A stretch of 64,000 nucleotides of DNA from Candidatus Doudnabacteria bacterium RIFCSPHIGHO2_01_FULL_46_14 (GTDB taxonomy: Bacteria > Patescibacteriota > Doudnabacteria > UBA920 > 2-01-FULL-46-14): assembly GCA_001779925.1 (NCBI GenBank), contig MFEK01000014.1, positions 1,011 through 65,010 of the forward strand. Reading direction: 5' to 3'. Made by a program: the position numbers and the translations under genes. Shown piece by piece: positions 3,001 through 60,236 of the stretch (position 1 is its first letter; the number at the start of each line of letters is the position of its first letter). The notes under the pieces were generated by a model that was given only the letters and a program-made list of their open reading frames with translations, was not told where the DNA came from and made no database searches.

Positions 3001-3833
3001 GCAAATTCCGCATCTACAAGAACCCGGCTTCCGGACAAAACCTGCTCACCATCAAGGTTGATACTGCCGCTATAACCAACCAGGGCGGCGATGGCAACAC
3101 AGGTGATTCCGGGGACGGCGTAAGCCTAACGGTCGCTGCCGATGCGTATGCCGGTAAAGGCATTGCGTCCGGATCGACAATCTCTGCCGCCAACAAATCA
3201 GGCACCTTCGACGGTCAGCAATATACGGTCTACAAGACCCAGCCGACCTTTGCCAGGGTTCCTCTGTCAACCACTTTGGCTGACGGTGATTTGGGCGTGT
3301 TCGCCTTCTCATTGACCGCTGACGCAAAGGGTGATGTCGGCTTCTACAAGGCCGCCTTTGAGATTTCCACAACGGGTGTGAGCATAACCGACTTCAAACT
3401 CTATGAAGAGTACGGCACATCCAATCAGCAGGATCTCACCACCAACGCGGCGCGCCAATCATCGGGCGAGCTGGCTGCCGGAAGAGACTATATATCCATT
3501 CTCTTGGATACAGGCACTGATGGCGTAGGCCAGGGCGGAGAATTCCGCTTCGTCGGCGCCGGTGTTACTAAGACCTTCCAACTGCGCGGAACAGTGGCTA
3601 ATGCCAGTGCCGGCGACAGTATGAATGTGGTTCTTAGAAACGCCACAGGCGTTGGTACTCACCCAGGCGATGCTGAAACCGTCGCTGATGAGGAAACAGG
3701 CCATTTTGTCTGGTCAGACTTGCACTACGGAAACTCAACACCAACTGCGACCTACACGGCCGAGTGGTTCAATGGGTACCGCGTGCCAGGATTGTCCGCG
3801 ACTTCTACACAGCAATCGCTGTCAAAGTCCTAA
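15..3833 (+). CDS. Giant secreted Thr/Gly/Ser-rich cell-surface (S-layer/adhesin-like) protein, 1272 aa
   Basis: N-terminal signal peptide (MHKPNRSFSQKVFAAGLAVTTALWAFGGLLTVAGAVEA). Three tandem ~80-aa repeats near the N-terminus (GT.V.SGTVW.VS..G...G....LYSWG.GFG.VV.ANSADLAL), then a Pro-rich linker TPTPPGPTPPP. The remainder is a long low-complexity T/G/S/V-rich beta-type region. Single uninterrupted ORF; antisense ORFs in the track are spurious. Confidence 0.75.
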   Translation: MHKPNRSFSQKVFAAGLAVTTALWAFGGLLTVAGAVEAHPAGTLVLSGTTVWHVSDDGTMRHGIDSLAKFLSHRYSFANVVPANSADLALPDGGLLGWGSGVLFNDGGTVYQVSGGTKHGFTSAAAFTGSGFSFGSVVNASLAGVTAGSNISDASMAHMEGTFVVSSGTVWRVSATGRQGVPQPGVLYSWGAGFGDVVAANSADLALANEGNASFRTGTLVNDSGTLFAVTATTKRGFPSASCYTGFGFNFSTPVAGSTAGLTAGANYCADAGTPTPPGPTPPPVSAGTVSVSLASDTPAAGTIVENAARVGFTKVNFTAGASDVIIDSMVVERTGISQDSNFTDIILLDVSGGVSVGVASQIGNEKTLGSTHQVTFADDITVKAGTTKSIMLAANMSGTLQAGETAALRLVSATPSGTATVSGSLPITGSTMTMNGTLAIGAVTIAAGSQNPAATTQQVGINDYIVSGVRVSANSVEDIEVQQMRFYQNGTAADGDVKDLELMVDGAVIATVSKPTSKEATFKLATPIVIKKGENKEFNVRLDIVDGSSRTISFDFDKKTDVVAIGKTYAYYMTPTYPNATSPFFNAPNTTIDSGALTFSKGVVASLNLAEGVNSQVIGAFKTTVQGEPVQVTRLVLNLTVTGTGNGADLTNIVVKDSAGKVVAGPIDGADNTGPDAATTTDTIIFPTGTNTYTVVANMNTDFAGNDTVQVGVDDPDSKVTAKGTVTNQTITANPTSTVTLDTLTVKTGSILVSTSTTPAAQNVLVGQTQFTFANFVLDATSSGEDVRVTALATVHRAVNSDPTNIANLTLYDGTTALSPIIQPSGTVSPATSTFSFTNPIVITKGSSKTLTLKGDIVSGDADSDTHAFGCEGTGCVTATGASTSTAITPTVTSSTGQTMSIVASGTFTVGASGTSPTQGANITGNSSKVTVGELLFTATNEDIDLTELHLGATAVNGGALNDEFSMVYLFAGSTQVASASPTTTNVITFQSLEGKFRIYKNPASGQNLLTIKVDTAAITNQGGDGNTGDSGDGVSLTVAADAYAGKGIASGSTISAANKSGTFDGQQYTVYKTQPTFARVPLSTTLADGDLGVFAFSLTADAKGDVGFYKAAFEISTTGVSITDFKLYEEYGTSNQQDLTTNAARQSSGELAAGRDYISILLDTGTDGVGQGGEFRFVGAGVTKTFQLRGTVANASAGDSMNVVLRNATGVGTHPGDAETVADEETGHFVWSDLHYGNSTPTATYTAEWFNGYRVPGLSATSTQQSLSKS

Positions 3834-54776: not shown

Positions 54777-56441
54777 ATGACGCAAGTGCAAGCTCTGGCG
54801 ATTTTAAAAACCGGAGCGAATGTTTTTTTGACTGGGGAACCAGGGGCCGGTAAAACTCACATTGTCAATGAATATGTCGCGTATCTGCGCAGACGGGGGA
54901 TAACGCCAGCCATCACTGCCTCAACCGGCATTGCCGCCACACACATAAGCGGTATGACCATCCATTCCTGGAGCGGCATTGGCATCAAAACCCACCTTGA
55001 TAAATACGACCTTGACCGTATTGCCTCAACCGAGCGAGTGGTGAGACGCATTGAAAACACATCTGTTCTGATCATTGACGAGATTTCTATGTTATCTTCC
55101 GGGACGTTGTCTATGGTGGATGCGATTTGTCGCGATGTGCGGCGCTCTCCAGATCAAGCGTTCGGCGGCCTGCAAACTATTTTCGTTGGCGATTTTTTCC
55201 AACTGCCTCCAGTTTCAGAAAACTCGGATCACGGCTTCGCTTACGAGTCTCCTGCCTGGAGCGCTGCCGATCCCACGGTTTGTTATTTGACTGAACAGTT
55301 CCGTCAGGATGACGAGGATTTTTTGACTCTGCTCAAAGCCATTCGCGCCAATACTTTCAACAGCGATCACGAGCGGTATATGCTGTCACGAAAAAAACAG
55401 GTGAGCGAAGTCTCTGAATCCATCCCGCGATTTTTCCCGCACAATGCCCAGGTTGACCGGGTGAATGAGGATAGGCTCAGCAAGCTTGCTGGAGACCCAA
55501 AAATATTTGCCATGTCTACGAAAGGCGCTGCAGCACTCGTGGAATCACTCAAGAAAGGCTGTTTGTCGCCAGAGAATTTACAGCTCAAGGTTGGCGCGGC
55601 CGTGATGTTTACGAAAAATGTGCAGAAACAAGGTTTTGTGAATGGCACGCTGGGCACTATCAAAGATTTCAACACCACTACAGGTCTGCCGATCGTGAAG
55701 ATGAGAAGCGGCCGAACCGTCACAGTGGAACCAGCGGAATGGTCATTGCAAGAAAACGGCCGCGTGCGGGCGAGTATCACACAGCTTCCGCTGCGCCTGG
55801 CATGGGCCATCACTGTGCATAAAAGCCAGGGCATGAGTCTTGATGAAGCGGCCATGGATCTCTCAAACGTGTTTGAATACGGCCAAGGCTATGTAGCGCT
55901 GTCGCGCGTCCGCCGCCTCTCGGGCCTGCATATTTTCGGCTGGAACGCGCGCACCTTTCAGGTGCATCCGGAGATTTTGGCAAGCGACAACCAGTTCCGC
56001 AGCGCATCTGCTACGGCCGAAATAGCGTTAAATAGCATGCCTGCAGAAACACTTCAAAAAGCTCATGACGATTTTGCCGCGCGCTGCGGCGGGCATCCGG
56101 AATCTGCCGAAGATTCTCCCGGAGAAGAGCTCTCTGCGCTCGATACCTATGGCATTACCCTCGCATACTGGAACGAAAACAAGACTCTCGCTGAGATTGC
56201 CACTGTGCGCGAGCTCAAGGAGGAAACGATTTTGTCGCACATCGAAAAACTCGCGAACACAGGCAAGATTGCCAAAACCGACATCTCTCGCCTCCTTACC
56301 CCAGCGCTCGACCAGGCTCTGCCGGAAATCCACGCCGCGTTCCGCGAGCTTGGCCATGACAAACTCTCGCCCATCAACGCCCATTTTTCCGGCCGCTATC
56401 CCTACGACAGCCTGCGCATCGCGCGCATGCTTTTGAAATAA
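54777..56441 (+). CDS. PIF1/RecD-like superfamily-1 DNA helicase
   Basis: Walker A LTGEPGAGKTH; ASTGIAATHISGMTIHSWSGIG; Walker B LIIDEISML; QFRQ; KSQG; SRV motif. Typical PIF1-like layout. Confidence 0.7.
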   Translation: MTQVQALAILKTGANVFLTGEPGAGKTHIVNEYVAYLRRRGITPAITASTGIAATHISGMTIHSWSGIGIKTHLDKYDLDRIASTERVVRRIENTSVLIIDEISMLSSGTLSMVDAICRDVRRSPDQAFGGLQTIFVGDFFQLPPVSENSDHGFAYESPAWSAADPTVCYLTEQFRQDDEDFLTLLKAIRANTFNSDHERYMLSRKKQVSEVSESIPRFFPHNAQVDRVNEDRLSKLAGDPKIFAMSTKGAAALVESLKKGCLSPENLQLKVGAAVMFTKNVQKQGFVNGTLGTIKDFNTTTGLPIVKMRSGRTVTVEPAEWSLQENGRVRASITQLPLRLAWAITVHKSQGMSLDEAAMDLSNVFEYGQGYVALSRVRRLSGLHIFGWNARTFQVHPEILASDNQFRSASATAEIALNSMPAETLQKAHDDFAARCGGHPESAEDSPGEELSALDTYGITLAYWNENKTLAEIATVRELKEETILSHIEKLANTGKIAKTDISRLLTPALDQALPEIHAAFRELGHDKLSPINAHFSGRYPYDSLRIARMLLK

Positions 56442-56592
56442 ATAAGATTAGCTTGCCCGCCTCGTCATAGCTTTTTGACCGTCCGAAGCCTTGGCGGAGG
56501 TGGAAGGGGAGGGTGATAATAATATGGCCAATAGAAAATCCAGCGAACAAAATATTCGCCATGGAGAGGTTTTTGTTTATATGAAAAAGAAA

Positions 56593-56624
56593 AACAGCGC
56601 GATTGCTATGGCAATCGCGCTGTT
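56593..56624 (-). terminator. Hairpin terminator serving the minus-strand gene (possibly bidirectional)
   Basis: AACAGCGCGATTGC-tatg-GCAATCGCGCTGTT. On the minus strand it is followed by a T-rich run (TTTTTCTTTTTC). Confidence 0.5.
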
Positions 56625-56627
56625 TCG

Positions 56628-56984
56628 TTAGAGAATGTGGGTGATATTCTCGAGGAGGGCTTTCTCCAGTTTTTTCCTGGAAAAGAGGGGGAAATGTTCC
56701 GGGAGTTCGTCGTCGAGCGCTCTATTGATGGCGTCAGCGATTCGTTGATCCCGAGGTCCGGTGTTTTTCATTTTTCGTTCAATGTATCCGTGGATTTCAA
56801 TATGATCCCCGCGATACTCGTCGTTGCCCCGACCTTCATCGCAGGCATCAAGCAACCGTTTCCACTGCCCATCTTCTAGCTCGTCAGCTACGTCATCGAT
56901 CAAACCATGAAAGATAATGACGTGCATTCCTTCACGAAGCCTTCTATCTAAAATCATCATCACGGCGTCCACATTTCCGCTCAT
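56628..56984 (-). CDS. Hypothetical acidic protein (118 aa)
   Basis: Clean ORF convergent with the helicase. No recognisable motifs. Rich in D/E. Confidence 0.4.
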   Translation of the reverse strand: MSGNVDAVMMILDRRLREGMHVIIFHGLIDDVADELEDGQWKRLLDACDEGRGNDEYRGDHIEIHGYIERKMKNTGPRDQRIADAINRALDDELPEHFPLFSRKKLEKALLENITHIL

Positions 56985-57241
56985 CCTTATCCTCCTGTTT
57001 TGATTGCGTTAAAGGAGAAATACTAGCAGAAATTCGCCTTCCTGTCAACACTTCCTGCCAACGGCTATCATTGCCTTAACCGTGAGACTGACTGCGAGTA
57101 TAAAGGCTTGGAAGTTTATAATTTTGTATACGAGAGATACCCTGGCCCAATTAAAGTTAAATAATTACATATTTAATTAGGTAATTCCCGGGGCAGGGGT
57201 GTGATTCCTGACTCTCAATCAGAATCCCAGCTCAACCAACG

Positions 57242-57271
57242 CGTAGTACAATTCTACCGAATTGTACTACG
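57242..57271. promoter_or_regulatory. 30-bp palindromic operator candidate upstream of arsR-family gene
   Basis: CGTAGTACAATTC-TACC-GAATTGTACTACG. Confidence 0.55.
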
Positions 57272-57296
57272 TTTAGTTTTATGCTATGGTGGAGGT

Positions 57297-57569
57297 ATGA
57301 AACGCTGGACGCAAATTTTTAAAGCTTTGGCTAATATGAACCGGTTGAAGATCATAGCATTGCTGGCTGACCGAATGCCGCTTACTGTCACGGAGATTGC
57401 TGACGAGCTTGGCATTTCTTTTCGGGCAACGTCGCGGCATTTGTTGCTTCTCAGCAGCCTGGATATTCTCGTGAGCCAAGGCAAGGACGGACATGTTTAT
57501 TATGGTTACAATAGCAGCATGCCTGTGGACATTAAAAAGATTGTCGAGCTTTTCCTTCACAACCTTTAA
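57297..57569 (+). CDS. ArsR/SmtB-family HTH transcriptional regulator
   Basis: MKRWTQIFKALANMNRLKIIALLADRMPLTVTEIADELGISFRATSRHLLLL, the classic ArsR N-terminus and HTH. SD GGTGGAGG. Confidence 0.8.
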   Translation: MKRWTQIFKALANMNRLKIIALLADRMPLTVTEIADELGISFRATSRHLLLLSSLDILVSQGKDGHVYYGYNSSMPVDIKKIVELFLHNL

Positions 57570-57577
57570 TATATACG

Positions 57578-57607
57578 CGTTGTACAATTCGGTAGAATTG
57601 TACAACG
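57578..57607. promoter_or_regulatory. Second near-identical palindromic operator candidate downstream of arsR-family gene / upstream of GT2 operon
   Basis: CGTTGTACAATTC-GGTA-GAATTGTACAACG. Same arms as the 57242 site (one A/T difference) with the centre inverted. Confidence 0.55.
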
Positions 57608-57674
57608 TATTCCCGCGGGTGCGGGTTGCATATCGTGCTTGAAAAAGAGCTTTTTTGATGGTATAGTAAAAGTC

Positions 57675-58409
57675 ATGGAATTGACTGTCTTAATCCCAGC
57701 CTACAATGAAGCGGGCCGTTTACCTGCTACTTTAAAGAAAGTTTTTGGGCAGCTTCAGGGGAATTTTTCCATGGGCAGTTACGAAGTTTTGGTAGCCAAT
57801 GATGGAAGCCGTGACAATACTGCCGCAATTGTTTCTGAATTGGTCTCAGTTTATCCTGGACTGCGGCTGCTTGATTACAAAATAAACCGGGGTCGCGGGG
57901 AGGTATGCAAAGCTGCGGTTGGCGAGGCGCAAGGAAAATACATTTTGATTTCTGATGCGGACGGCAGTACTGATGTAAAATTTATCCGTTCGTTTTTTGA
58001 TTTTTTGGAAAGACATCTGGAGGTGGACATTCTCACTGGCAGCCGCGATATTGTGGACGCGAAAATCCTTACGCCCCAGCCGGTACTGCGCGTATTTTTT
58101 AACAAAGTTTTTTTACTCATGGCTAAGGCGTTGTTTGGCTGGCCAATGCACGACCGGGTCAATGGTTTTAAGATGTTCCGCCGTGATGCGGCCCTTGATA
58201 TTTATCCGCACCAGACAGAAAAGAGTTTTTTTGCCGAGGCGGAGCTCATTTTTATTGCTGACCAGCGCGGCTGGGAGGTAAAAGAGCTGCCTATCGAATG
58301 GACGGATGACCGTGATTCGCGCGTTAAACCTTTTCGCGAAGCCTGGCGCTCATTTTGGGGAATGTTTCGCATTGTCTGGCGGGGTAAAACCGGATTTTAT
58401 AATAAATAA
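57675..58409 (+). CDS. GT2 glycosyltransferase (DPM1/GtrB-like catalytic domain, no TM tail)
   Basis: LTVLIPAYNEAGRL; EVLVANDGSRDNT; ILISDADGST. Start could alternatively be ATG 57639. Confidence 0.75.
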   Translation: MELTVLIPAYNEAGRLPATLKKVFGQLQGNFSMGSYEVLVANDGSRDNTAAIVSELVSVYPGLRLLDYKINRGRGEVCKAAVGEAQGKYILISDADGSTDVKFIRSFFDFLERHLEVDILTGSRDIVDAKILTPQPVLRVFFNKVFLLMAKALFGWPMHDRVNGFKMFRRDAALDIYPHQTEKSFFAEAELIFIADQRGWEVKELPIEWTDDRDSRVKPFREAWRSFWGMFRIVWRGKTGFYNK

Positions 58410-60236
58410 ATGCAGTTATCAATAATCATCCCAGCTTATAACGAAGAAAACCGCCTGGCCCTGACCTTGGACCGGATTTTTGAATATTTGGCCGTGCATT
58501 ACCAGGGCGATTATGAGGTGATTATTGCGGATGATGGTTCCACAGACCGCACCGTGGAAATTGTTGCCGCTTATATGAAACGCCATCCGGAACTCAGGCT
58601 TTTAAAATTCGCCGCAAACCGAGGCCGGGGCGCCGCAGTCCGCAGCGCGGTTTCTGAGGCCAAAGGCGATTTTATCCTTGAGACTGATGCGGACGGCAGT
58701 ACAAATGAGCATGCGATCATTGCTTTTTTGAGCTATTTGGCCAAGCACCAGGACACCGATGTTTTGGTTGGTTCGCGCAATATTGAGGGCTCGCGTGTGC
58801 TTTCACCTCAGCCTGTATTGCGGGTGATGCTTGGCTACGCGTTTTTATTTTTGGCCAAGTTTTTGTACGGCTGGCCGCTCGTGGACCGGCAAAACCGCTT
58901 CAAGATGTTCCGACGTGAGGCGGCATTCGATATTTTTCGTTGCCAAAAAGACAATGGATTTTTGGCGGAAGCAGAAATCGTCTACATCGCAGAAAAACGC
59001 GGCTGGCAGGTAAAAGAATTGCCGATTTTGTGGACCGAATACAAAGGCTCGCACGTGCGGCCGTTTCGTGATTCGTGGCGTTCGCTGATCGGCATGTTTC
59101 AGATATTGCTGAGGAGCCATCGAGGCGAGTATTCTCAAAATATTTCTGTCTCGCAAAAGCCGAAAGCAGAAGCTGCGGCAAAAAACGAATTTGTCAGCGT
59201 GCTCATCACTGGCGGCTGCGGGTTTATCGGTTCCAATTTTGTCCGTTATTTTTATCACAATCATCCGCGCGCCAAGATCGTAAATCTTGATCTTTTAACC
59301 TATGCTGGAAATATCGCGAACCTGCGCGATCTTCAAGATTTGGAATCGCTTCTGCCGGAAGCGCGGCGCCGGTATTCTTTTGTGCAAGGCGATATTTGCG
59401 ATCCGCAGCTTTTGGAGGAGCTATTTGCCAAAAATCATTTTGATTTGGTGGTGCATTTTGCTGCCGAGTCGCATGTGGACCGTTCGATATTTAACATGGG
59501 TGATTTTGTGCGCACTAACATCGAGGGGACGCGGATTTTGGCGGAGACGGCACGCCGGCACGCCATCAAGCGGTTTGTTAATATTTCTACCGATGAGGTT
59601 TATGGCTCGATAAAGGATGGCTACGCATCCGAAGAGTGGACTCTCCGGCCTTCCAATCCTTACTCTGCATCTAAGGCCGGAGCAGATCTGCTCGTGCAGG
59701 CTTATATTCGCACTCATGACCTGCCGGCCATCATCATTCGCGGCTCAAACAATTACGGCCCGTTCCAATATCCGGAAAAGCTTATTCCCTTGGCGATCAC
59801 CAATCTTTTAGAGGGGAAAAAGATCCCGGTGCACGGCTATGGCATTCATGTACGCAGCTGGTTGCATGTCCTGGATTTTTGTCGGGCAATTGACGCGATA
59901 GCCAGCGGCAATCCCCAGCATCGAATCTATAATGTGGCTGGCGAGGAAAAAACCAACCATGACGTCTTAGAGCTCATTGCCAGATACCTAGGCAAGAGCC
60001 TTGCGGATCATAGGTTTCATGTTAATGACCGCCCGGGCGCGGATCATCGTTACGCCGTGGACGCAATTCGTTTGGAAAAAGAGTTTGGCAAATTGTCTAT
60101 GCACCAGCCGTTTGAGCAGCAAATCGGCAAGATCGTGCAGTGGTATATTGATAACGCTGATTGGTGGCGCGAGATTCGCCTCAAGGAAGGGTTCACTAGA
60201 GCTTATGAACGACAATCAAAAGGACAGTGGAGTTAG
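58410..60236 (+). CDS. Fusion protein: N-terminal GT2 glycosyltransferase + C-terminal dTDP-glucose 4,6-dehydratase (RmlB) domain
   Basis: N-terminus paralogous to 57675 (LSIIIPAYNEENRL; EVIIADDGSTDRT; ILETDADGST). C-terminus VLITGGCGFIGSNFV...LTYAGN...HFAAESHVDRS...ISTDEVYG...YSASKAGADLLV...NNYGP.QYPEKLIPL, strong motif-by-motif RmlB match. Confidence 0.8.
   Translation: MQLSIIIPAYNEENRLALTLDRIFEYLAVHYQGDYEVIIADDGSTDRTVEIVAAYMKRHPELRLLKFAANRGRGAAVRSAVSEAKGDFILETDADGSTNEHAIIAFLSYLAKHQDTDVLVGSRNIEGSRVLSPQPVLRVMLGYAFLFLAKFLYGWPLVDRQNRFKMFRREAAFDIFRCQKDNGFLAEAEIVYIAEKRGWQVKELPILWTEYKGSHVRPFRDSWRSLIGMFQILLRSHRGEYSQNISVSQKPKAEAAAKNEFVSVLITGGCGFIGSNFVRYFYHNHPRAKIVNLDLLTYAGNIANLRDLQDLESLLPEARRRYSFVQGDICDPQLLEELFAKNHFDLVVHFAAESHVDRSIFNMGDFVRTNIEGTRILAETARRHAIKRFVNISTDEVYGSIKDGYASEEWTLRPSNPYSASKAGADLLVQAYIRTHDLPAIIIRGSNNYGPFQYPEKLIPLAITNLLEGKKIPVHGYGIHVRSWLHVLDFCRAIDAIASGNPQHRIYNVAGEEKTNHDVLELIARYLGKSLADHRFHVNDRPGADHRYAVDAIRLEKEFGKLSMHQPFEQQIGKIVQWYIDNADWWREIRLKEGFTRAYERQSKGQWS

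Follow-up and report, generated by a model that had tools for sequence, protein, structure and literature searches.

A small ArsR-type regulator of Patescibacteria whose gene is flanked by two palindromic candidate operators

A regulator gene between two palindromes

We analysed a 64-kb stretch of the genome of Candidatus Doudnabacteria bacterium RIFCSPHIGHO2_01_FULL_46_14 (contig MFEK01000014.1; hereafter the window). It contains a gene for a winged-helix regulator of the ArsR/SmtB family (90 amino acids; 57297..57569, plus strand) with a predicted operator on either side. The upstream operator (site 1, 57242..57271, no strand assigned) reads CGTAGTACAATTC-TACC-GAATTGTACTACG, and the downstream operator (site 2, 57578..57607, no strand assigned) reads CGTTGTACAATTC-GGTA-GAATTGTACAACG. 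Both are 13-4-13 palindromes, and repeat analysis showed that the 13-nt arms of each are perfectly complementary. Site 1 ends 25 nt before the ATG of the regulator gene and site 2 starts 8 nt after its stop codon. A first-pass annotation of this DNA had described two near-identical 30-bp palindromes with inverted centres around an ArsR-like gene, and we confirmed the coordinates, the arms and the centres. Its statement that the arms are identical except for one base was also borne out, as the two sites differ solely at arm position 4 (A versus T) together with the mirror position 27. The centre of either site, TACC or GGTA, is the reverse complement of the other. As an inverted pair the two 30-mers are 93% complementary, and as direct repeats they are similar over 34 nt.

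When we searched the window with the 22-nt core GTACAATTC-N4-GAATTGTAC, permitting up to three mismatches, exactly two matches were found. As 0.02 matches were expected in 64 kb, the palindrome pair is non-random and not a chance feature; none of 100 shuffles gave two matches. A search of the window for further or degenerate sites with a 14-base core and three mismatches returned chance-level matches only.

The regulator matched the Pfam HTH_5 (ArsR) model with 31.4 bits (cutoff 22). A profile of its family, compared with the structures in the PDB, matched CzrA at 8e-15 and also HlyU, SmtB and CadC. The AlphaFold2 monomer model (predicted local distance difference test score of 95) has the topology a1-a2-a3-aR-b1-b2-a5, with helices at residues 2-11, 14-25, 31-38, 42-54 and 77-88 and strands at 58-63 and 66-71. 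A Foldseek search with this model found SmtB, CzrA and HlyU at template modelling scores of 0.77-0.80. The recognition helix reads ..ATSRHLLLL... The window protein has no cysteine and, as seen by comparison with CzrA, the family alignment has no conserved Asp, His or Glu ligands in alpha5; the regulator is thus a minimal ArsR fold with no recognisable sensor. An inducer site, sought in the regulator as an alpha3/alpha3N Cys motif or an alpha5 DxHx10HxxE motif, was absent, and no ligand site was recognisable. By its sequence the regulator groups with ArsR members that do not sense metals, like HlyU and NolR. The palindromic form of the sites is consistent with binding by a homodimer.

We found 72 homologues of the regulator, and all of those with a named host belong to the candidate phyla radiation (CPR), namely to Jorgensen-, Sung-, Lipton-, Doudna-, Wolfe-, Harrison-, Staskawicz- and Campbellbacteria. 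A search of a representative library found three clusters at 1e-30 and 657 clusters at 1e-10, with a gradual transition to 23,923 general ArsR matches. The tight regulator family is small.

Conservation of the cassette and its specificity classes

To compare loci, 36 were taken from species-representative genomes by the protein alone (loci from the comparison are given as L numbers), and 33 of these had both flanks present. The upstream palindrome was found in 31 of the 33 complete loci. The downstream palindrome was present in 26 under a strict criterion, and five more loci carry an imperfect, split or mismatched version, which brings the count to about 31 of 33; only L018 and L038 truly lack it. 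The core CAATTC-N4-GAATTG is invariant at these loci. Contigs with homologues at 62-80% identity have a palindrome with the same core some 55 nt ahead of the ATG and a second one 8-22 nt past the stop codon. The neighbouring genes on these contigs are all different: a gene with a weak match to the pilin-type N_methyl model, a purple-acid-phosphatase-like gene, MreB and an unknown gene. Further unrelated neighbours among the retrieved loci include MurG-like, EamA and RecG genes, among others. The site-gene-site cassette appears to belong to the regulator, whichever genes adjoin it.

From 161 distinct sites we derived the half-site consensus YATTGWACAATTC (Y-A-T-T-G-W-A-C-A-A-T-T-C); with the centre of the window, the full site is written YATTGWACAATTC-TACC-GAATTGWCAATR. 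Across these sites more than 70% two-fold symmetry is kept for about 13 nt outwards from the centre block, with background levels beyond, so the element is a discrete palindrome of 30-32 bp. Downstream sites are more symmetric than upstream sites (90% versus 72-82%), and in some relatives the palindromes have perfect arms of 19-23 nt that include the stop codon.

Several loci carry variants of this arrangement. In L031 (2551-2950), two tandem regulator paralogues have one palindrome in common between them, and in L013 (3790-3860) a 21-nt insertion separates the half-sites of the downstream palindrome. L005 has an array-like series of five 29-nt palindromes (at 1401, 2556, 3577, 3952 and 4288) that separate consecutive small genes. 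The first four are identical, and the fifth differs by two bases in its outer left flank. The genes of this array encode a DUF2188 pair, an HTH_24 protein, a PF1765-like protein, the regulator and a protein with a weak pilin-type N_methyl match.

The residue at position 47 of the regulator (..ATS-X-H.., in the modelled helix 42-54) predicts the central 4 bp of the adjoining palindromes. When it is lysine (K), the centre is GCGC (12 of 12), and when it is asparagine (N), the centre is CATA, TATG, CATG or TATA, that is YATR (28 of 28). With arginine (R), TACC/GGTA is found in the window, L005 and L011, and the centres CTAG, AACC and TCGA occur in L077, L022 and L043, respectively. The association of K and N with their centres gave a Fisher p of 2e-10, uncorrected for phylogeny. 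In one Jorgensenbacteria genome, two paralogues, L014 (K-type) and L036 (N-type), each have sites of their own type on both sides. Such matching ties the palindromes to the regulator and would be hard to explain via another factor; it is the pattern that one would expect of diverging, self-regulating paralogues. Judging from the helix register of the model and from general knowledge of winged helix-turn-helix (wHTH) proteins, residue 47 probably occupies a base-contacting position. A literature search for base-contacting residues in the CzrA helix yielded no confirmation. In the R-type clade the centre of the operator is always TACC/GGTA, which is strongly asymmetric, with half-sites TA and GG; this applies to the window sites and to L005, L011, L050, L057, L061, L079, L098 and L102.

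Two other small elements were seen near such sites. In N-type loci an A-rich motif, AAAAAAT-AGGCGA, recurs before genes and is followed by GTAAATTT-ATG, sometimes with an inserted hairpin CCCCAGTAGTA...TACTACGGGG (L025 10300-10400, L026 10310-10375, L027 9920-9945 and L038 490-560). Possible explanations are a leader element and a small insertion. Similar hairpins, AACGGCTAA-N7-8-TTTAGCCGTT, adjoin R-type palindromes on two unrelated contigs (L005 at about 3530-3570 and L102 at about 2000-2035).

The upstream site overlaps a predicted promoter of the regulator gene (57262..57290, plus strand), which was read from the sequence as TTGTAC, a 17-nt spacer, TG and TATGGT and is below the threshold of a consensus scan. 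Its −35-like TTGTAC (57262-57267) lies within the right arm of site 1, the TG is at 57282-57283 and the −10 element TATGGT at 57285-57290, 6 nt before the ATG. The motif TGnTAnnnT 4-8 nt before the ATG, with a palindrome over the −35 region, was also found in L005, L011, L008, L014 and L012. At N-type loci the predicted −10 (TATAAT or TATGAT) abuts the right arm and TTGTAC or TTGAAC lies in the left arm, so that the whole operator is inside the predicted core promoter. In both subfamilies, therefore, the upstream site and a predicted promoter overlap, as is classical for repressors of the ArsR/SmtB family. Since site 1 covers the −35 region of the predicted promoter, the arrangement suggests that the regulator represses its own gene via site 1.

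At both the regulator gene (57282-57299) and the GT2 gene that follows site 2 (57659-57677), an extended −10 TGnTAnnnT ends 6-7 nt before the ATG and leaves no usable Shine-Dalgarno spacing. The regulator mRNA is for this reason probably leaderless; the same is suggested for the GT2 mRNA, and likewise at many homologous loci. Further upstream, the 312-bp divergent intergenic region 5′ of site 1 contains overlapping palindromes that are rich in AT, AGTTAAATA-attaca-TATTTAATT among them, at 57155-57186.

The role of the downstream site

We propose that the regulator is an autorepressing ArsR/SmtB homodimer with two operators of its own, that site 2 most likely serves as a roadblock, and that the three elements form a conserved operator-gene-operator cassette. 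We put the probability of this reading at about 0.7. That the two sites are operators of the enclosed regulator is strongly supported by the comparison of loci. In the proposed mechanism, the homodimer would bind both palindromes. At site 1 it would cover the −35 of a weak, extended −10 leaderless promoter and thereby shut off its own transcription. When occupied, site 2 would most likely block RNA polymerase leaving or entering the regulator gene, which would insulate the GT2 operon, with a promoter of its own, from read-through and tighten the feedback. Site 2 may also cooperate with site 1. A role as roadblock or insulator is the one we favour for site 2. The first-pass annotation had likewise taken the palindromes for two operators. 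This part of its proposal has gained from the conserved core around orthologous genes, from the co-variation of the centre with residue 47 and from the overlap of site 1 with a predicted promoter; its second part, control of the downstream operon, was not supported as the reason for site 2.

Several points weigh against this reading. The roadblock role of site 2 rests on analogy, and as site 1 already covers the promoter of the regulator gene, an added roadblock may be redundant. The centre of site 1 at −40.5 could fit class-II-type activation equally well, and some ArsR-family members, e.g. HlyU, are activators. In the window, the predicted −35 matches at three of six positions and the predicted −10 at four of six. 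The K and N classes largely correspond to two clades, which leaves few independent changes. Among about a dozen TACC-centred sites, symmetric TATA or GGCC centres are absent, which is odd for a symmetric homodimer. Finally, the 19-23-nt arms of some relatives exceed the need of one dimer.

Instead of stalling polymerase, site 2 could be bridged to site 1 by a dimer of dimers, which would close a repression loop of about 336 bp around the regulator gene. We regard such a loop as possible, but clearly less probable than a roadblock. The two near-identical sites are separated by 314-429 bp at 30 loci, the downstream sites are the more perfect palindromes, as would be expected of a strong anchor, and pairs of sites also bracket a flavin mononucleotide (FMN) riboswitch unit in L044 and L046. 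However, the spacing is largely set by gene length, and the inter-site distances showed no helical phasing (Rayleigh p of about 0.8 for periods of 10-11 bp), which speaks mildly against a strict loop geometry. Moreover, no tetramerisation element is evident in the model of this 90-amino-acid minimal ArsR fold.

The position of the downstream site is tied to the regulator gene. The median distance from the stop codon to the centre of the site is 23.5 nt (n=31), and at several loci the palindrome takes in the stop codon itself. Of 21 loci with an intergenic region of 90 nt or more, 20 have the site in the half next to the regulator gene (p=2e-5). It is also found before a real convergent gene in at least three loci, where this gene encodes an LTD-domain protein, an IS200-type transposase or a methyltransferase. 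The gene after the downstream site is functionally unrelated between loci.

In the window, site 2 is followed by a GT2 gene (57675-58409) that is co-directional with the regulator gene, a gene for a fusion of GT2 and a dehydratase/epimerase (GT2-RmlB; 58410-60236), and genes for a C-methyltransferase and a YfhO-like protein. This operon has a strong predicted promoter of its own (57639..57667, plus strand; TTGAAA-17-TATAGT with a TG extension, 10 of 12 matches), which lies wholly 3′ of site 2. The ATG of the GT2 gene (57675) comes 7 nt after the predicted −10, and site 2 is centred near −82. Four orthologous GT2 operons with the same gene order (66-74% identity) have neither the regulator nor the palindrome. 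Upstream of the orthologous GT2 gene in L110, the −10 block TGGTATAGTAAA(A)GT is kept and there is no palindrome. In L111 a GFO_IDH_MocA gene is followed by the GT2 gene after 8 nt, and the helicase and arsR genes found here are likewise absent from L110, L112 and L113.

The first-pass annotation had assigned site 2 to the control of this glycosylation operon. A dedicated operator for the promoter of the GT2, GT2-dehydratase and C-methyltransferase genes is favoured by the place of site 2, 67 nt upstream of the co-directional GT2 ATG; in relatives, orphan sites stand 12-130 nt upstream of other genes, and in some cases, such as L050 and the downstream site of L011, an extended −10 follows at a similar distance of 45-55 nt. 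However, at −82 site 2 does not overlap TTGAAA-17-TATAGT, and across loci the site tracks the stop codon of the regulator gene and not the start of the next gene. Because it is tied to the stop codon, because the GT2 promoter is separate and because the orthologous operons are free of the site, we attribute site 2 to the cassette and not to an ancestral control of glycosylation. We thus consider a dedicated operator unlikely, and the claim in the annotation was not upheld. A local effect of site 2 on read-through into the GT2 gene is possible, but annotation of the window should not take control of the glycosylation operon by this regulator for granted.

The absence of its genes from the four orthologous operons identifies 54777..57607 (no strand assigned) as a lineage-specific insertion that splits the glycosylation cluster, whose genes are contiguous in relatives. 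It comprises a PIF1-like helicase gene, an open reading frame (ORF) of 118 amino acids and the operator-arsR-operator unit. The 118-amino-acid ORF is on the minus strand, has no family match and is convergent with the helicase gene. In L110 a different gene, of 189 amino acids, occupies the same junction. This junction in the glycosylation cluster looks like an insertion hot spot.

We also looked for signs of transcription termination around the two sites. A 16-bp-stem hairpin with T-runs on both strands (56591-56626), located between the convergent helicase gene and the 118-amino-acid ORF, is a textbook bidirectional intrinsic terminator; the host therefore does use canonical terminators. At site 2 no intrinsic terminator was detected, as no T-run follows the site. 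A small GC hairpin, CCCGC-GGGT-GCGGG (57612..57625, plus strand), was found by folding, but it has no proper U-tract and was not called a terminator. A T-rich tail is present at site 1, but the site is not preceded by the end of a co-directional gene. Among the other loci, a canonical terminator after the downstream site was found by strict criteria only in L041, and weakly in L032. Since such terminators are rare, transcription from the regulator gene would enter the next gene unless blocked. In L041 (3131-3571), an IS200-like Y1 transposase gene convergent to the regulator gene lies directly after the downstream palindrome and the terminator hairpin; this is a single case.

The palindromes might also act mainly as stem-loops in RNA or single-stranded DNA, i.e. 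as terminators, 3′-end stabilisers or processing sites. Each site folds into a stable 14-bp stem (about −19.5 kcal/mol, z of about −6), with AT-rich stems that have 5 GC pairs of 13-14. Site 2 would be transcribed if there is no earlier terminator, and the sole difference between the sites is a compensated, mirrored change. The long perfect arms of some relatives and the T-rich run after site 1 would fit this explanation as well. However, it is the stem sequence that is conserved and not pairing alone, symmetry ends at about 13 nt, and the central loop bases co-vary with a residue of the protein. In addition, upstream sites lie upstream of or within predicted core promoters and would thus not be in the gene's own mRNA, and where a terminator is present, in L041 and weakly in L032, it is a separate element after the site. 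An Rfam scan of the whole window gave nothing at gathering thresholds, and at E<=1 the region 56400-57800 had only matches far below gathering scores, over the terminator region at 56592-56625. A function mainly as hairpins is therefore quite improbable, although a dual role in DNA and mRNA, as for the CIRCE element (controlling inverted repeat of chaperone expression), is possible.

Further copies, mobility and known systems

The first-pass annotation had suggested a wider search for the motif. In the window this gave sites 1 and 2 only, and further intergenic copies came to light in the loci of relatives and in metagenomes. The flanks of the retrieved loci (0.59 Mb) hold about 20 further copies of the core motif, where about 0.04 are estimated by chance. 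About 40 of 61 metagenome stretches with the core motif contain no regulator gene in the stretch. The extra copies in the locus flanks lie outside the immediate flanks of the regulator gene; copies of both kinds are intergenic and often 12-130 nt upstream of small genes. From their placement, these copies look like a regulon.

At two loci an FMN riboswitch (RF00050, 96 and 80 bits) is located between the downstream palindrome of the regulator gene and a gene for an EamA-family transporter (L046 10276-10573 and L044 7018-7362). Another palindrome follows the riboswitch terminators, 9-13 nt before the transporter ATG, so that the riboswitch unit is bracketed by two sites.

The least probable explanation is that the palindromes form a recombination pair, either around an invertible segment, as had been raised in the first-pass annotation, or as the ends of a mobile element. 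The 30-mers do form an inverted repeat with opposite centres, but this property of an invertible switch (30-nt arms, 93% complementary) is trivial because each site is itself palindromic. Centre orientation varies between relatives: L005, L020 and L032 have the direct arrangement and the window, L011, L036 and L037 the inverted one, and the centres of all K-type sites are symmetric. Four assemblies from four different samples all have the same orientation, which is a weak test, as these are assemblies and not reads. No recombinase of the Ser/Tyr invertase type was found among the called genes within ±10 kb or in eight scanned neighbours, nor was a transposase within ±10 kb, and the 90-amino-acid wHTH protein has no catalytic motif. 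Crossover at the centres is an unlikely source of the sequence pattern, because each window site keeps its own symmetry at the variable position, and a crossover would scramble that. The cassette does lie within a lineage-specific insertion, one metagenome-assembled genome (MAG) has two cassettes that are 100% identical over 265 nt between unrelated flanks, and a gene was gained or lost between sites in L026 versus L025; but the window holds two copies only, and a single match was found among viral contigs (IMG/VR). Taken with the centre orientations and the missing recombinase, this makes recombination by the palindromes very unlikely. No tRNA or att-like feature was found in the intergenic region upstream of site 1.

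The identical cassettes lie on different contigs of the same MAG (L026 9922-10324 and L027 9922-10324), and their identity of about 265 nt runs from the upstream palindrome into the gene. This points to a unit that was duplicated or gene-converted recently, or else to two strains in one bin. It is possible that whole cassettes are duplicated or recombined at the sites. Other kinds of element were considered and rejected. Repetitive extragenic palindromes with their associated transposases (REP/RAYT) or miniature inverted-repeat transposable elements do not match two copies in 64 kb that enclose a wHTH protein, with a Y1 transposase adjacent in L041 only. Integron attC sites and the C-box of restriction-modification controller proteins were dismissed, as the cassette is accompanied by neither integrase nor restriction-modification genes and its protein is of the ArsR type, not the Xre type. 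A phage association was discarded on the one IMG/VR match.

A bolder version of the proposal is that Patescibacteria have a portable, self-insulated cassette found in no other group, in which a repressor stalls polymerase at the end of its own gene and the scattered, near-identical operator copies double as recombination points. We find this doubtful. If it were true, stalling would truncate or block the regulator's own message, which would add a second, co-transcriptional layer of feedback and gate downstream read-through. Small gene cassettes, the regulator included, would then be duplicated, inserted and lost at operator copies. The code that links K, N and R to the operator centre would, moreover, provide a ready-made set of orthogonal repressor-operator pairs.

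An autoregulated winged-helix repressor with palindromic operators is a known kind of mechanism. Operators of the SmtB/ArsR family are 12-2-12 inverted repeats, e.g. AATACCTGAACA-GA-TGTTCAAGTATT, with one or two repeats per control region (PMC8790569). The system described here shares with the SmtB/CzrA repressors the fold and family, a palindromic operator of about 26-30 bp with a TGWACA-like element, and an overlap, predicted in our case, with the regulator's own promoter. In contrast to them, the element here is 13-4-13 and has ATTC between the TGWACA-like block and the centre. The protein has neither alpha3N/alpha5 metal ligands nor cysteines, and hence no known inducer. The second operator is found past the stop codon and not in the promoter region, and the family is restricted to Patescibacteria.

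The closest layout is a synthetic one. In the Stocker 2003 design, for which PMC3918153 is the source, an engineered second ArsR site downstream of arsR cuts the background of the downstream gene, and such a site has been classed as roadblocking (PMC10310618). These arsenic bioreporter circuits have the same order of operator/promoter, arsR, second operator and downstream gene, and the second site lowers uninduced expression in the bioreporter. They are synthetic, however, and natural E. coli ars operons have one site, whereas the layout reported here is natural, conserved across a phylum-level group and kept before convergent genes.

Other systems are alike in part. Looping between lac O1-O2 or gal OE-OI, and the roadblocks of PurR, CodY and CcpA, also involve a second operator a few hundred bp downstream, in or after the transcribed region; here, in contrast, there is no sign of tetramerisation or helical phasing, and the operator stands at the 3′ end of the gene that encodes the repressor. 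HrcA-CIRCE combines a perfect inverted repeat of fixed spacer, widely conserved, with one dedicated winged-helix repressor, and a role in both DNA and mRNA is plausible in either case. However, HrcA belongs to another protein family and CIRCE is another element, found in the 5′ leaders of chaperone operons and not flanking the regulator gene. HlyU and NolR, which were top structural matches, are small ArsR-fold proteins that do not sense metals and bind AT-rich palindromes, as is predicted for our regulator. Unlike it, HlyU is an activator that acts far upstream, the NolR operator is shorter and asymmetric, and neither has a cassette with flanking operators.

A literature search for ArsR-type regulators of the CPR or for this palindrome found no paper. 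As far as the searched literature shows, the conserved operator-gene-operator architecture, the 13-4-13 site and the residue-to-centre classes of Patescibacteria are undescribed. CPR bacteria have very few regulators, and their transcriptional control is almost unstudied. The cassette would give this group a concrete candidate regulator-operator pair, with a 30-bp site, a predicted extended −10 leaderless promoter and candidate intergenic target sites. It also offers specificity classes that have diverged in nature: K with GCGC, N with YATR and R with TACC. The second operator, placed after the stop codon of the repressor gene, would be a natural counterpart of the trick by which background is cut in arsenic biosensors.

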